A stretch of 64,000 nucleotides of DNA from a phage. A program made the translations under genes and the position numbers. The notes under the pieces are model-generated. The model did no database searches. It had not been told where the DNA came from and saw nothing but the letters and a program-made list of their open reading frames with translations. Positions 5,041 through 48,753 of this stretch are shown here, piece by piece. The stretch lies in sequence record PZ347661.1; one strand, given 5' to 3'. How positions within the stretch are numbered: position 1 is the stretch's first letter; each line of letters starts with the position of its first letter.

Positions 5041-5421
5041 ATGTCAAACAGACGAAATGGTAAGTCTATCCTGCAAGGACTGGACTTCAGTAAGCTGGAA
5101 CAAACTGCAATGCTTGCTTTAGGTAAAACTATCCATGACCAAGTGGAGAGTAAAATTGAATTAGATCTTTATGCAACAATGCAGACTCTTATTCAGAAAA
5201 AATGGATTACTAGCAGACTTTTTCCTTCATACATTCCCCCAGAACCTCATCTGAAATCTAAGGTAGACCGAATCATAGATAAGTTCTGGCTTAACCCATA
5301 CGGGGATGATATGCAACTTTATCTGACTCAAATACAAAAGAATCCTCATACTAAGGATGTGTTCAAGGGTAAAAGTACTACCCATCACTACCCCTGGTAT
5401 AGAAGAGGTAGTAAATACTAA
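5041..5421 (+). CDS. hypothetical protein
   Basis: 126-aa ORF after terminator. Confidence 0.4.
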   Translation: MSNRRNGKSILQGLDFSKLEQTAMLALGKTIHDQVESKIELDLYATMQTLIQKKWITSRLFPSYIPPEPHLKSKVDRIIDKFWLNPYGDDMQLYLTQIQKNPHTKDVFKGKSTTHHYPWYRRGSKY

Positions 5422-25021: not shown

Positions 25022-25845
25022 TCTGGTAGGTGGCTCAGAAGCTGCTGCTATTTGTGGTAGTGTTCATAATTCTGATGCTATTGCTTATCAGGATTCTGGA
25101 CGTGTCGGCTCCATACATAGCATTTATCATCACTGTGCTTATACTTTGGAAACTCAGTGATAAAAACGGTGGTGACAAGCCGCCAGACTAACAACAACCG
25201 AACCAGTGTGCAGGAATACTCTCCCCTGTGCATTGGTTCAACTGAGACTAATATGAACAAATTTACTATTCACTGGCTCAATGGAAAGGTTAGTTCTTTC
25301 ATGGGTGGAGAACCTGTTGAAGGAAAGAAAGCATTTCACATTGAATCAGAAGGCTGCAAAATCTTAATACCATACGCTTGGTATAAAGATGGTGAAGTAG
25401 AAGCATTAAAAAAGAGTAGTTAATATCGTGAAGGGTTCTGTTAGAATCCTTTGAGATAGGAACTCCTATCATAACCTTTCTTAACTTAATCTTTGCCGTA
25501 TGGCACTGACGCTAGGGGTGGCCCCCCATCCGTCAGGTAGACTATTTTAAGAATGGGTTATCACAGCAAATGTAAAGCAACATTCGGGTTAATCAATGGC
25601 CTCTCCCTATAGGGGCCATTTCTGAATCTTAGGCTATATCCCAAAGGTTAATATCTTTGGGATAAGGCTTCAGATCCCTTATCAACTAACCGCTCAATGT
25701 TGAGCATTTTAATCACATAAGCCCCTATATGGGCTGGGTTAAATGTCGGATAGCATAGCTACCTACAGCATCGAATTGTTAGGTCTTACATGCAAACTAA
25801 ATCATAGGGTAAAGAGGGACTCGTCCTCCCTCCCCTATTATAATG

Positions 25846-25915
25846 GTCGGGGTAGCGCGTAGGCATGTGCAGAAGGTCGCTACTTCTCTCGCTGGTTCGA
25901 ATCCAGCCCCCGACC
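25846..25915 (+). tRNA. tRNA-like gene, 70 nt, isotype uncertain
   Basis: Acceptor GTCGGGG/CCCCGAC 7 bp; T-arm GCTGG-TTCGAAT-CCAGC; D-stem GCGC/GTGC; anticodon stem AGAAG/CTTCT with loop GTCGCTA (possible CGC); short variable loop. Confidence 0.4.
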
Positions 25916-26466
25916 TACTGACATCCTATCAATGAGTACATTAGGCTAACGTGCGGAGGTTTACACTGTAGCCGGTGTAGGTGGAGAAGACGGCAGGATA
26001 GCTACCTGTGCTTAGTGTACTCTTTGATAGTTTTCGTAAGCGATTATGCGGTTTTTTAGAAACGAACCAATAACATAAATGCAAACGATGATGTTGTTCT
26101 GATGGCGGCGTAATAGCCTATAAGTCAGCAAGGTCTTCCGATTCCTTGTAAACAAATTCGGCGCAGTGGCCCGCTGTGATTAATAATGGGCACACAACAG
26201 GTAAGAGCATTTAGGCTACTGAGAAATCATCCGAGGCAATCAGACCTATCTTCTGTTAAGTGCTCTTTCCGTTGTGGTGAATGTGCAGGCTGATGCGCAG
26301 TGGGACGTGGCTGACTCACGAGGATGGCTCAAGCGAATAAGCAAGCTCGACGCCGCCGAATAAGCGCCTTATGCCGGAGATCAGTACCGGCCACCACAAC
26401 AAGTCCAGACGATATCTGAGTGACTATAAAAACAGATGGAGCCAGGTGGAATCCCTGGCAACTAAT

Positions 26467-26532
26467 TCCGGTGTAGGTACTAGTGTCGTGCACGGCATGA
26501 GTGTTCTGGTTCGAGTCCAGACGCCGGAACCA
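26467..26532 (+). ncRNA. tRNA-like minihelix element with encoded CCA
   Basis: TCCGGTG pairs with CGCCGGA; T-arm TCTGG-TTCGAGT-CCAGA; discriminator A then CCA; body only about 63 nt, too short for a full cloverleaf. Confidence 0.3.
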
Positions 26533-26534
26533 AT

Positions 26535-26658
26535 TACCAGTTGCACGAGATGGCTTGATATGTTCAAGTTTGGACTAAGTGTGACACCGCTAGATTGGAG
26601 AGCTGCTGCGGTAAGCTATAGACTCCAACCGGGGGTTCGAATCCCTCACTGGTAACCA
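26535..26658 (+). ncRNA. tRNA-like element with oversized body and encoded CCA
   Basis: TACCAGT pairs perfectly with ACTGGTA; T-arm GGGGG-TTCGAAT-CCCTC; discriminator A then CCA; about 121 nt between acceptor strands with internal hairpins. Confidence 0.3.
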
Positions 26659-27102
26659 ATTCAAAGTAGCATTGCACTAATCCATCCCGGAGTTCAAAGG
26701 CCAAACATGGAGCAGTGCTACTTTGAATTAGAAAGATTATGGGGGTAAGTCGTAACCATACGACGGCGTAAGTACCAGATGAGACTTCTGGACGCCCCTA
26801 CCAGATTTGGGGTGTAACAGTTAGATCCAGTTGCCGGAAGTGCTATTCTAGATACGCTGCCAATGTGTGAACGGTAAGGCTGTACAGGACTCGGACTCCC
26901 ACCTCAAACCAAAGTCGCCAGGTACTTATGGCAAACGGGTAGTAACGAACTAGTCATTCGTCAAACGCCCAACCTATTATGAGTCAGCAAGAACGCCTTC
27001 ACTTAAACTTAAACAAAAAAGCTTAACGCAATAATTATGTAGGGGTATGTAAGGATTGCGAAGAAGGAGCCAGTTAAAGTCTGGCATGGCTCAACCTATT
27101 AT

Positions 27103-27176
27103 GCCCACTTAGCTTAGACAGGGAAAGCAACCGACTAATAATCGGAAGGTCACTGGTTCAAATCCAGTAGTGGGTA
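27103..27176 (+). tRNA. tRNA gene, canonical cloverleaf, anticodon loop CTAATAA
   Basis: Acceptor GCCCACT/AGTGGGT; T8 A9; D-stem GCTT/AAGC with 9-nt loop containing GGG; anticodon stem CCGA/TCGG; 5-nt variable loop; T-arm ACTGG-TTCAAAT-CCAGT; 74 nt. Confidence 0.55.
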
Positions 27177-27491
27177 CTTATTTGCTGCAATATTCCCATA
27201 GGGAATGGTGCCGTATACGCCACCTAGTTTCTGGTGAAACTCCAGATGCAGCAATCCATTCAGCAGTAACATAGTCCTGATTGCATTGCACTCTAAAGAC
27301 AACACTGGTAAGACAGTCCAGTGACTGCTAATGTACTGTTATTCCCCTCGACGGGAATTTCGCTAGTGAAGGTAACACTTAAAAATCCAAACCTACGTCT
27401 TACTACTATCGGGCTATCAACCCACAGTCGCTTAACACACTAGTGGTAGTAGTTTGACGGCCTAGCCTCGTTAGCTGCGTTAAAGCTACTA

Positions 27492-27517
27492 AGTCCCTCT
27501 TCGGAGGGACTTTTTTA
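27492..27517 (+). terminator. rho-independent terminator
   Basis: AGTCCCTC-ttcg-GAGGGACT followed by TTTTTT. Confidence 0.75.
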
Positions 27518-27687
27518 TTTGAGTATTAATAAATGGATATTCAGGATGATTGACCTAATTTCTACTCCGTATGCCTATGAGGTAACGGATAACCGAGGAC
27601 ATAAGTACTTGGTATTTGCAGGTAGCGTAGCCTATAACAACGCAGTAATGTTTAAGTACAAACTCAAACCACTCTATGAGGCTAATA

Positions 27688-47532: not shown

Positions 47533-48753
47533 TTAAAGACTACCCGGTACTGGGAGTTTAGCGAAATCTTCATCACTCATAGCGAGTGGGTTTACAATAG
47601 GCGTTGCTTTACGTGTAGCAGCCCGATTAAGGGAAGCTGCTTTAGCTTGCTCACTGTTAGCCAGAGTCTGCTTAGGTCGTGCTACACGCACTACCGGCTG
47701 AACTGCTGGTTTAACTGCTTGTACCGGTTCAGGCTTAGCCACTTGGTTAAATGCACCCTGCTGTGCAAGGAGATTACCAACGTAGTTATAAGCCTGAATG
47801 AACGGAGTACCTACCGGAATCTGACCTAACACCTGAAGACGATTCACTTCGTTAGCAATGGTGTCATAAATACCATTCTCACGCTGTTCGTGAATGGTGT
47901 GGAGTAAGCCACGATTCTGATAAAGAGCATCTTTACTGGCAGCATCCCATGTCGAGCTAATAACACCTAATGTAGCTTGTCCTTCTTGAGTAGACTTTAA
48001 GTCGTCAATTTCGGTTGCAAAATCTGCTTCGGTGTCTGTAACACGGTGTTTGCCACCCTGGTAGTTAATTTCCTCATCAGGATTAAAGTCCAGAGGATCT
48101 GTACCAGAGTCTTTTAACAACTTTTTAATGGCTTCAGGATTCTTTTTATCCAGGTCAATCAGGAAAGAAAGTTTTTCCTCATCCATTAAACCGTTGTTCT
48201 GTAGCATCAGCATTACCTTACGGTACGGCTGAAGTTCTTGCATCTTACGAGTATAGTTAGCACCCATCTGCATCAGGCTAATGGCCTCCTCCGGTGAACG
48301 GGGAGTAATCATTTTGCCGTTAGCTTTAAAAGGAGCCATCAACTTCTCGTAACCTTCCTTATAGTTGAAGTCAGCAGGCAGACCTTCAGACTGTTTGCCT
48401 TCTTCTTTCTGTTCCTGGCCTGGTTCAGTAGTAGAAGGTTCAGCTTTAGTAATCGGCTCACCGTTACTATCAACTTCTGTGTCAACAACTTTATCATCAA
48501 CTTTATCAGAAGTTAAAGAATTTGCTGAATCATCTTCAACTGGCTCAGTTTCAGGGGAGGTTTCTTCGGTTGGTAGGTCTTCAACAGCAGAGGGGTCAAC
48601 TTCTTCATCAGGAGTCTGTACGCCGTTGGTTTCTGGGTTGTTCTGAGTGGAAGTATCTTCCTCAGCAATAATTGCTGGGGCTTCCATATTCAGAATCTCA
48701 TCATCCGACATTGCGAGAATGTCGGAAGCTGTGGTTGCAGCTTCCGTAGTCAT
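47533..48753 (-). CDS. head assembly / scaffolding-like protein (putative)
   Basis: 406 aa with strongly acidic low-complexity N-terminal third; immediately upstream of the capsid gene. Confidence 0.4.
   Translation of the reverse strand: MTTEAATTASDILAMSDDEILNMEAPAIIAEEDTSTQNNPETNGVQTPDEEVDPSAVEDLPTEETSPETEPVEDDSANSLTSDKVDDKVVDTEVDSNGEPITKAEPSTTEPGQEQKEEGKQSEGLPADFNYKEGYEKLMAPFKANGKMITPRSPEEAISLMQMGANYTRKMQELQPYRKVMLMLQNNGLMDEEKLSFLIDLDKKNPEAIKKLLKDSGTDPLDFNPDEEINYQGGKHRVTDTEADFATEIDDLKSTQEGQATLGVISSTWDAASKDALYQNRGLLHTIHEQRENGIYDTIANEVNRLQVLGQIPVGTPFIQAYNYVGNLLAQQGAFNQVAKPEPVQAVKPAVQPVVRVARPKQTLANSEQAKAASLNRAATRKATPIVNPLAMSDEDFAKLPVPGSL

Follow-up and report, generated by a model that had tools for sequence, protein, structure and literature searches.

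A conserved isoleucine tRNA gene with a wobble adenosine in Gamaleyavirus phages

Introduction

What can a bacteriophage transfer RNA (tRNA) decode if its gene places an adenosine at wobble position 34 (A34) of the anticodon? The question is raised by a 64,000-nucleotide stretch of phage DNA (sequence record PZ347661.1; hereafter the window, meaning this whole stretch), which belongs to a Gamaleyavirus, an N4-like coliphage of the Schitoviridae resembling G7C, Bp4, ECBP1, and IME11, and which carries an isoleucine (Ile) tRNA gene with the anticodon AAU, tRNA-Ile(AAU). To our knowledge, bacterial decoding makes almost no use of A34 outside tRNA-Arg(ACG), and its avoidance in split codon boxes is put down to poor or ambiguous pairing. 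An earlier note on this DNA, made from the letters alone, had folded the element by hand and offered three explanations: an Ile tRNA in need of A-to-I editing, a tRNA whose decoding is altered, or a mimic that does not decode. Here, we combine gene prediction, comparative analysis, codon usage, and published decoding data. The reading that we favor, with about even confidence, is that the gene encodes a functional elongator tRNA-Ile, specific to this phage lineage and dedicated to AUU, whose A34 stays unmodified in Escherichia coli (E. coli).

Results

A canonical tRNA gene places AAT at positions 34-36

ARAGORN calls a tRNA-Ile(aat) at 27103-27177, and the Rfam model RF00005 matches the gene (Table 1) from end to end (model positions 1-71 of 71) with 63.7 bits and an E value of 1.7e-11, the gathering score of the model being 29. 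Minimum free energy (MFE) folding yields the cloverleaf too (-20.9 kcal/mol, z -2.2). The hand fold of the earlier note is therefore borne out by the automated calls, which agree on a well-formed tRNA with the loop CTAATAA and put AAT at the same positions, 34-36, rather than shifting the anticodon. The note was also right to take the DNA for that of a phage. Its description of every arm as canonical holds for T8, G18G19 in the D-arm, the variable loop of 5 nucleotides (nt), and the TTCAAAT T-loop. It does not hold at two places: the anticodon stem is topped by an A27.A43 mismatch, which Rfam marks and relatives keep without change, and has four standard pairs, and pair 1-72 is a G.U wobble in the window (G-C in 8 of the 13 sequence variants described below).

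The bases of the tRNA core, namely U8, A14, G18G19, U33, G53-T54-T55-C56, A58, C61, and R15-Y48, are all present and invariant; the Levitt pair is G15-C48 and the T-arm reads G53-TTCAAAT-C61. The gene does not encode CCA: A73 is followed by ctt in the window and by ctt, cat, ccc, or ctc, never by an encoded CCA, in the variants. This is a real tRNA gene, with pairing far beyond chance.

The anticodon loop is invariant while stems covary

A 35-nt query centered on the anticodon found identical sequences in 21 GenBank phage records and sequences with one to three mismatches in ~18 more, and representatives from each mismatch class all keep AAT. An anticodon-free pattern from the 3' half of the gene retrieved it from four IMG/VR contigs and three metagenome contigs, every one of which carries CTAATAA. 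The AAT anticodon is present in 15 of the 15 Gamaleyavirus or metagenomic loci that were read, which comprise 13 distinct sequence variants.

Substitutions among these 13 variants are limited to paired stem positions, the variable loop, and D-loop position 17a, where each of the four bases is represented; 13/13 variants have the same anticodon loop and T-arm. The stem positions vary in ways that preserve pairing: 1-72 is G.U or G-C, 2-71 is C-G, U-A, or U.G, 5-68 is A-U or G.U, 29-41 is C-G, U-A, or U.G, and 30-40 is G-C or A-U. Across the variants, all stem cells pair (260/260, 100%), double compensatory changes are seen at three pairs, and the observed covariation score was reached by 0/500 shuffles. 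The RNA island around the gene is mosaic, with neighboring elements present in some relatives and absent from others. Because the anticodon loop and T-arm are fixed and the stems compensated while the flanks are mosaic, the gene, including its A34, is under purifying selection.

A wobble-A34 isoleucine tRNA is rare among phages

To place A34 in context, we ran ARAGORN on all fetched loci, using as background the hundreds of unrelated tRNAs that anticodon-free stem and T-arm patterns had retrieved from IMG/VR. This broad, non-random sample holds 1,481 viral tRNAs from outside the genus. A34 occurs in 48 of them, 29 of which are Arg-ACG. The Ile tRNAs in the sample comprise 45 with GAT, 27 with TAT, and four with AAT. 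Among the AAT calls, two come from sets or contigs of giant-virus type that hold other eukaryote-style A34 tRNAs; the remaining two, in loci L125 and L155, are dubious 91-nt folds and were discarded. A clean bacteriophage tRNA-Ile(AAU) is rare and, in this non-random sample, confined to this genus.

GenBank records label the gene variously as tRNA-Ile or as 'tRNA-Xle' with the note 'tRNA-lle(aat)', or leave it unannotated, and phage PW8, for which a published statement reports that no tRNA was detected, has a copy that is 98.6% identical. We found no published discussion of the A34 peculiarity in this gene. The gene is already annotated ('tRNA-Ile-AAT'); the oddity of A34 and its conservation have not been described before.

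A second apparent A34 tRNA, 'tRNA-Cys(ACA)' of Bp4 and ECBP1, has been reported (PMC11927229), which would point to a systematic A34 habit. We did not count it: it folds poorly, is absent from the window, and has no Rfam tRNA match, a 17-nt match resembling the 3' end of transfer-messenger RNA (tmRNA) being the only one.

Isoleucine identity elements are retained except at position 34

The identity list that we used for E. coli isoleucyl-tRNA synthetase (IleRS) prints the D-stem pair as U12-G23 (PMC9976931); in E. coli ileV this pair is U12-A23. The window tRNA has all four of the E. coli Ile identity elements A73, C4-G69, U12-A23, and C29-G41, the last being U-A in KKP 3715 and U.G in CU10EC. 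As for the anticodon-loop determinants, the bases A35, U36, A37, and A38 are present and invariant. The determinant at position 34, G34 or lysidine-34, is lacking, since all copies have A there. C34, the TilS substrate characteristic of tRNA-Ile2, is likewise replaced by A34 although the body resembles the ileX/ileZ family; A34 cannot be converted to lysidine by TilS.

With E. coli tRNA-Ile1 (GAU; ileT/ileU/ileV), the phage tRNA shares A35, U36, A37, A38, and all four identity elements named above, as well as the loop C32-U33-N-A-U-A-A, and both would read AUU. The body of tRNA-Ile1 is clearly different in sequence, however, and that tRNA has G34, reads AUC by Watson-Crick pairing and AUU by wobble, encodes CCA, and lacks a 27-43 mismatch. 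The nearest sequence relative outside the genus is phage and bacterial tRNA-Ile2 (CAU to lysidine; ileX/ileZ type), such as that of Aeromonas phage Assk or the ileX of Stx phage 933W. In the Assk tRNA(CAU), the anticodon stem-loop AACCGACTCATAATCGG differs from the phage sequence at position 34 alone in this stretch, and the T-arm is nearly identical. Unlike the phage tRNA, whose A34 would read AUU, tRNA-Ile2 has C34, depends on TilS, reads AUA, and encodes CCA.

Another reading is that the gene is a relic, namely a disabled ileX-type descendant with a C34-to-A change, or that its RNA has a non-decoding role, in which it would divert host factors that bind tRNAs, signal processing, or contribute to the structure of the island. 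The tRNA-Ile(AAU) does sit among several non-canonical tRNA-like RNAs, its body is nearest to tRNA-Ile2(CAU), with an anticodon stem-loop that differs at positions 34 and 43 alone, CCA is unencoded, and charging with A34 is uncertain. A relic, however, would not keep an invariant anticodon loop, the tertiary bases, and the Ile identity pairs across 13 compensating variants, and the fully canonical score of 63.7 bits stands against <32 bits for the neighboring elements. We therefore regard a non-decoding role or a relic as quite improbable, and the mimic suggested in the earlier note is disfavored by the same retained identity elements, perfect core, and fixed loop.

A34 should escape editing and restrict decoding to AUU

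Whether A34 is edited to inosine (I34) decides which codons the tRNA could read. The sites whose editing depends on TadA in E. coli have a UACG motif, carried by a stem-loop that resembles the one in tRNA-Arg2 (PMC13170351). In the same bacterium, Schmitt et al. (PMC11066159) gave a single tRNA body 15 different ANN anticodons; its loop, C32-U33-ANN-A37-A38, was otherwise that of tRNA-Arg2 and provides the context found in the phage tRNA. Inosine was found with ACG, AUG, and AAG alone; it was absent (limit ~5%) from the eight tested anticodons, AAU included, in which positions 35 and 36 both depart from ACG. The AAU tRNA read AUU at 4.5%, AUC at 0.43%, and AUG at 0.27%, with AUA below detection, i.e., AUU was read ~10-fold better than AUC. 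This engineered M. jannaschii tRNA provides the sole direct AAU data and shares with the phage tRNA the anticodon, the loop context, and translation in E. coli; it differs in having an artificial orthogonal body that is charged with Tyr and is not an IleRS substrate.

A phage enzyme could in principle supply the editing. No open reading frame (ORF) of >=50 amino acids in the window, outside which ~8 kb of the phage genome lie, contains a CDA-type zinc motif (H/C-A-E...P-C-x-x-C), and we rejected a phage-encoded tRNA deaminase on this ground. The Bp4 annotation between 35000 and 72583 lists no tRNA deaminase, a dCTP deaminase being the only deaminase there. The gene encodes the A34 that an I34 tRNA needs; a deaminase that accepts AAU was found neither among the window ORFs nor, according to the literature, in host TadA. 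Because TadA takes UACG, AAU is unedited in E. coli, and the window ORFs have no deaminase motif, A34 should stay unmodified in E. coli and AUU should be read almost exclusively.

The alternative is that A34 becomes inosine and that a single phage tRNA reads AUU, AUC, and AUA in eukaryotic style (IAU). The loop C32-U33-A34-N-N-A37-A38 agrees at 5 of 7 positions with that of tRNA-Arg2, which TadA takes as a substrate (comparison from PMC11066159), and I34 would be a better IleRS determinant (PMC11685878); AUA makes up 11% of the phage Ile codons. Two reports describe extra I34 tRNAs in some bacteria, e.g., tRNA-Leu(AAG) (PMC13249217, PMC8266599). E. coli TadA's specificity, the lack of inosine in AAU in this very loop, and the missing deaminase motif all count against it. 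The tRNA-Ile(AAU to IAU) of eukaryotes and giant viruses likewise encodes A34 in the gene, but it depends on ADAT2/3 and has no close sequence relationship to the phage tRNA. Natural bacterial tRNAs with a gene-encoded A34, namely tRNA-Arg(ACG), tRNA-Leu(AAG) of Lactobacillales and Oenococcus, and those of Mollicutes, differ in serving four-codon boxes and in being mostly I34-modified; a bacterial A34 tRNA of the split AUN (Ile/Met) box is not among them. Editing in this host is thus very unlikely, as is the first explanation of the earlier note. Its second, altered decoding, fits best in the form of an Ile decoder restricted to AUU by an unmodified A34.

Codon usage fits an AUU reader. In the long ORFs of the window, AUU, AUC, and AUA account for 60%, 29%, and 11% of Ile codons, and AUU is the fourth most used codon of all (34 per 1000); on the late strand its share of Ile codons is 64%. 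In E. coli K-12 ribosomal and elongation-factor genes, AUC makes up 71%. We also noted an ORF at 47533-48753 (-) that adjoins the major head protein gene and uses AUU for 18 of its 18 Ile codons. It is not the major head protein, a possibility that we rejected, but the homolog of N4 gp57 (PHROGs label 'tail length tape measure protein'); N4 gp57 itself uses 16/6/1.

The gene lies in a tRNA island with lineage-specific cargo

The tRNA-Ile(AAU) gene is on the + strand within a ~2.2-kb gene-poor stretch, flanked by gp46/47-like genes and by gp48/gp49 homologs; the convergent gene for virion RNA polymerase comes just after. Other Schitoviridae likewise have a tRNA island at this locus, with a cargo that differs by lineage: Asn-GUU, Ser-UGA, Thr-UGU, and Pro-UGG in N4, and Asn, Glu, Asp, Ile-GAU, and Tyr in Erwinia phage phiEaP8. 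In Gamaleyavirus, Ile-AAU is the sole canonical tRNA. The N4 RefSeq record lists no features in the 1.5-kb gap between gp47 and gp48 (NC_008720.1, 32112-33632), which holds the four canonical N4 tRNAs as well as the tRNA-like element TL-A described below.

No bacterial donor was found. Among 5,426 complete E. coli genomes there is no close copy of the gene, the best being 78-81% identical, and an exact 27-nt pattern from the 3' half had one unrelated tRNA as its sole match among 185,579 species-representative (GTDB) genomes. Judged by these searches, the gene was not borrowed from the host. Outside the genus, phage Ile tRNAs come closest to it, especially those of the CAU (lysidine, ileX/ileZ) type; phage Ile tRNAs of the GAU type are also similar in the anticodon arm and T-arm. 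Because the two types share these arm sequences, the ancestor could have been either, and we cannot tell which.

Other elements of the RNA island

The features of the island are collected in Table 1.

Table 1. Coordinates of the tRNA-Ile(AAU) gene and of neighboring RNA features in the window
Feature	Position	Strand	Description and evidence
tRNA-Ile(AAU) gene	27103-27176	+	74 nt, positions 1-73 with one extra D-loop base; ARAGORN, Rfam, MFE, covariation
Anticodon loop C32-U33-A34-A35-U36-A37-A38 (CTAATAA)	27135-27141	+	Invariant in all homologs examined
Anticodon AAT, A at wobble position 34	27137-27139	+	Sequence and ARAGORN
5' leader motif CCTATTAT	27095-27102	+	3' end abuts tRNA position 1; weak evidence
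Intrinsic-terminator-like hairpin	27491-27512	+	9-bp stem followed by T run; consensus scan alone
tmRNA-like message module, unannotated	~26014-26160 (tag ORF 26082-26114)	+	Conserved leader, tag frame, hairpin, pseudoknot
tRNA-like element, ARAGORN tRNA-Ala(cgc)	25845-25916	+	Sub-threshold Rfam tRNA-Sec match alone, 31 bits
TL-A, tRNA-like	26466-26531	+	~66 nt; acceptor stem, T-arm, small hairpin, no anticodon arm
TL-B, tRNA-like	26534-26659	+	126 nt; acceptor stem, 87-nt insert, T-arm
Long near-perfect hairpin (TTCAAAGTAGCATTGCAC ... GTGCTACTTTGAA)	26654-26736	+	Directly 3' of TL-B

The 8-mer CCTATTAT that abuts the tRNA also occurs on the + strand at 25834-25841 and 26973-26980, so that all three + strand copies lie inside the 1.3-kb RNA island; two of the three adjoin the 5' end of a tRNA or tRNA-like element or stop 4 nt short of it, the second such element being the one that starts at 25845. 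Relatives keep ...ATTAT followed by the G that begins the tRNA. The window holds four copies in total, a number not above chance, and the motif is a possible processing or initiation context. The terminator-like hairpin lies ~315 nt 3' of the tRNA gene and is a candidate end of the transcription unit that bears it.

GenBank names for the tRNA genes of the island are inconsistent (Thr, Ala, Cys, or OTHER). The element called tRNA-Ala(cgc) combines an acceptor stem of 8 bp with one linker base and U37, and it lacks G3.U70; it is present in Bp4, ECBP1, and locus L243 and absent from locus L051 and PhAPEC5. TL-A and TL-B stand in tandem; each closes with an encoded ACCA and has stems that covary in relatives. 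The copy of TL-A in phage N4 has 98.7% identity; the element is restricted to Enquatrovirinae and appears in some records as tRNA-Undet. A mechanical ORF of 94 amino acids at 26371-26655 (+) overlaps both and is probably not a gene; the Bp4 annotation has no coding sequence across the island. The only Rfam match of the long hairpin that follows TL-B is to a microRNA family, at chance level. Sub-threshold matches to STnc100, an enterobacterial small RNA (gathering score 47), occur on the + strand at 25533-25628 (29.6 bits) and 27483-27520 (22 bits).

A tmRNA-like tag module is shared among unrelated phages

Upstream of the tRNA gene lies a module that resembles the message part of tmRNA. Its leader is nearly invariant (...GTTTTCGT..AGCGATTATGCGG..TTTAGAAACGAACCAATAACATAAAT) and is followed by the ten codons GCA AAC GAT GAT GTT GTT CTG ATG GCG GCG and the stop codon TAA, i.e., ANDDVVLMAA*. 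The frame has no in-frame start codon, and an in-frame TAG lies eight codons upstream. The tag of E. coli SsrA is ANDENYALAA. In Rfam, the module gives sub-threshold matches alone, to the tag region of tmRNA models; ARAGORN detects it with relaxed thresholds and not by default.

In 13 phages of at least eight unrelated groups, the tag frame is kept at the peptide level; besides relatives, it is seen in P1, Det7, Kevin and Bue1 (Ackermannviridae), Sa179lw, Sf13, 7-11, the lambdoid phage HK633, and Vibrio phage pYD38-A. Tags include ANDDLMMVAA (P1), ANDNTFLAVA (Det7), ANDNVFLAVA (Sf13), and ANEEMYLAVA (HK633), and others in this set are ANDNAFRVAA, ANDNAFLMAA, ANDNEFKVAA, ANEEAYLMVA, and ANNETYLMVA. 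The terminal Ala and the Asn of the tag are preserved through synonymous codons. The stop codon lies inside a hairpin and an H-type pseudoknot comes next, at fixed positions; in the stems of the module, 166 of 169 cells pair, with at least two pair types at 12 of 13 positions, by a hand segmentation that is somewhat biased. The module thus shares with tmRNA the start-less tag frame, the stop codon in a hairpin, and the H-type pseudoknot, but differs in having no canonical tRNA-like domain.

The tag block matches 385 phage records and 145 of the 5,426 E. coli genomes, and most of the matches listed have no annotation there. Most copies with annotated surroundings that we examined lie in or adjoin a tRNA cluster. 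In Sf13, the whole module fits into the 248 nt between two tRNAs and has no T-arm; in P1, it directly follows the 'dicF-like region' of the ban operon leader, and a sub-threshold STnc100 match similar to those in the window lies near it. The segment 3' of the module is replaced between relatives (window 26115-26402 versus Bp4 5100-5272): Bp4, ECBP1, and the UE phages have the degenerate 'tRNA-Cys(ACA)' there, and the window and IME11 have an unrelated 287-nt segment.

No acceptor stem near the module carries G3.U70. We considered TL-A and the tRNA-Ala(cgc) element as general partners of the module, and neither holds. A second 'tag' proposed by ARAGORN, AGTNYQLHEMA*, was rejected, as it is explained by stem covariation. 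In a survey by the tmRNA website, the phage tmRNAs are those of some mycobacteriophages and of Bacillus phage G, together with a DS6A element that consists of the tRNA-like domain only (PMC4131195). We found no literature on the present module. It may supply the coding part of a system made of two pieces, or it may act as a decoy for host rescue machinery; it is a stronger surprise than tRNA-Ile(AAU) and deserves its own follow-up.

Discussion

We propose that tRNA-Ile(AAU) adds a Watson-Crick reader of AUU beside host tRNA-Ile(GAU). As part of the tRNA island that separates the gp46/47-like genes from gp48, the gene would be transcribed on the + (early/middle) strand. The transcript would be cut at its 5' end by RNase P, the 3' end would be trimmed, and host enzymes would have to add CCA because it is not encoded. 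A37 would be modified to N6-threonylcarbamoyladenosine (t6A), and E. coli IleRS would charge the tRNA through A35, U36, A37, A38, A73, C4-G69, U12-A23, and C29-G41 despite the missing G34. A34 would then pair with AUU, the dominant Ile codon of the phage, and would read AUC weakly and AUA not at all. Since tRNA-Ile(GAU) is the sole host reader of AUU and AUC and takes AUU through a G:U wobble, any fitness benefit may lie in relieving dependence on that wobble.

Several points weigh against this proposal. First, position 34 is an IleRS determinant, and yeast IleRS charges A34 16-fold worse than I34 (PMC11685878). Bacterial IleRS1, which contacts G34 through the backbone and by stacking, reportedly has a lower stringency toward the anticodon (bioRxiv 10.64898/2026.02.03.703510), but that report did not cover A34. 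Second, the conserved A27.A43 mismatch and the unencoded CCA are unusual for an E. coli-adapted tRNA, and expression, CCA addition, and aminoacylation are predicted from the gene sequence. Third, the published AAU decoding values come from a foreign, Tyr-charged body. Fourth, N4, which has no Ile tRNA, uses AUU for 71% of Ile codons in orthologous replication genes and for 67% in late genes, and the AUU/AUC count in the major head protein of the window is 13/11. The codon-usage check suggested in the earlier note thus gives a divided answer: AUU is dominant, as suits an AUU reader, but N4 shows an equal or stronger bias without the tRNA, so that codon usage cannot tell the explanations apart. 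Codon supply is compatible with the data and leaves unexplained why this genus in particular has the tRNA.

Lineage-wise turnover of tRNA cargo at the Schitoviridae locus, and a codon bias that does not track the tRNA, fit a host-specific pressure better than plain codon supply. Such a pressure could be defense, with the phage tRNA sustaining Ile decoding when host tRNA-Ile(GAU) is cut or depleted; A34 and the altered body would make it a poor substrate for anticodon nucleases that recognize the host tRNA. Earlier work proposes and shows that phage tRNAs escape anticodon nucleases through changes in the anticodon loop, and phage tRNAs can stand in for host tRNAs that such nucleases have cut (PMC10264068; PMC11555353, PMC11464382). 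Enterobacterial nucleases that cut tRNA-Ile(GAU) include HepS, for which it is a secondary target (PMC13043305), and CdiA-CT EC536 (PMC11724271). The latter cleaves between positions 32 and 33, however, both of which are unchanged in the phage tRNA, and the loop outside position 34 (C32, U33, A37, and A38) is the same as in host tRNA-Ile. We know of no nuclease that N4-like phages trigger and that attacks tRNA-Ile in the natural hosts. Evasion of defense is a rival to be taken seriously and may also be a complement, since it can coexist with AUU decoding, differing from it in the trait that is selected; as the principal explanation, we consider it unlikely.

A34 itself may be the selected trait, although we consider this unlikely: the tRNA would decode the main Ile codon while staying invisible to host factors, e.g., anticodon nucleases, that recognize tRNA-Ile with G34 or a modified position 34. 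The tRNA may then belong with the neighboring tRNA-like RNAs and the tag module to a toolkit for taking over or protecting translation.

If tRNA-Ile(AAU) proves to be an ordinary supplement to host decoding, the outcome is a small annotation note: 'tRNA-Xle' and the missing GenBank annotations should read tRNA-Ile(AAU). If it works as an AUU-dedicated tRNA, it would be a natural tRNA-Ile of a bacterial system with an unmodified wobble adenosine in a split codon box. It would offer a natural test case for unmodified A34 decoding in E. coli, for the tolerance of IleRS at position 34, and for why phages carry particular tRNAs, whether for codon supply or for defense evasion. Gamaleyavirus is easy to test in this respect, being lytic, grown on E. 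coli, and equipped with a single canonical tRNA.

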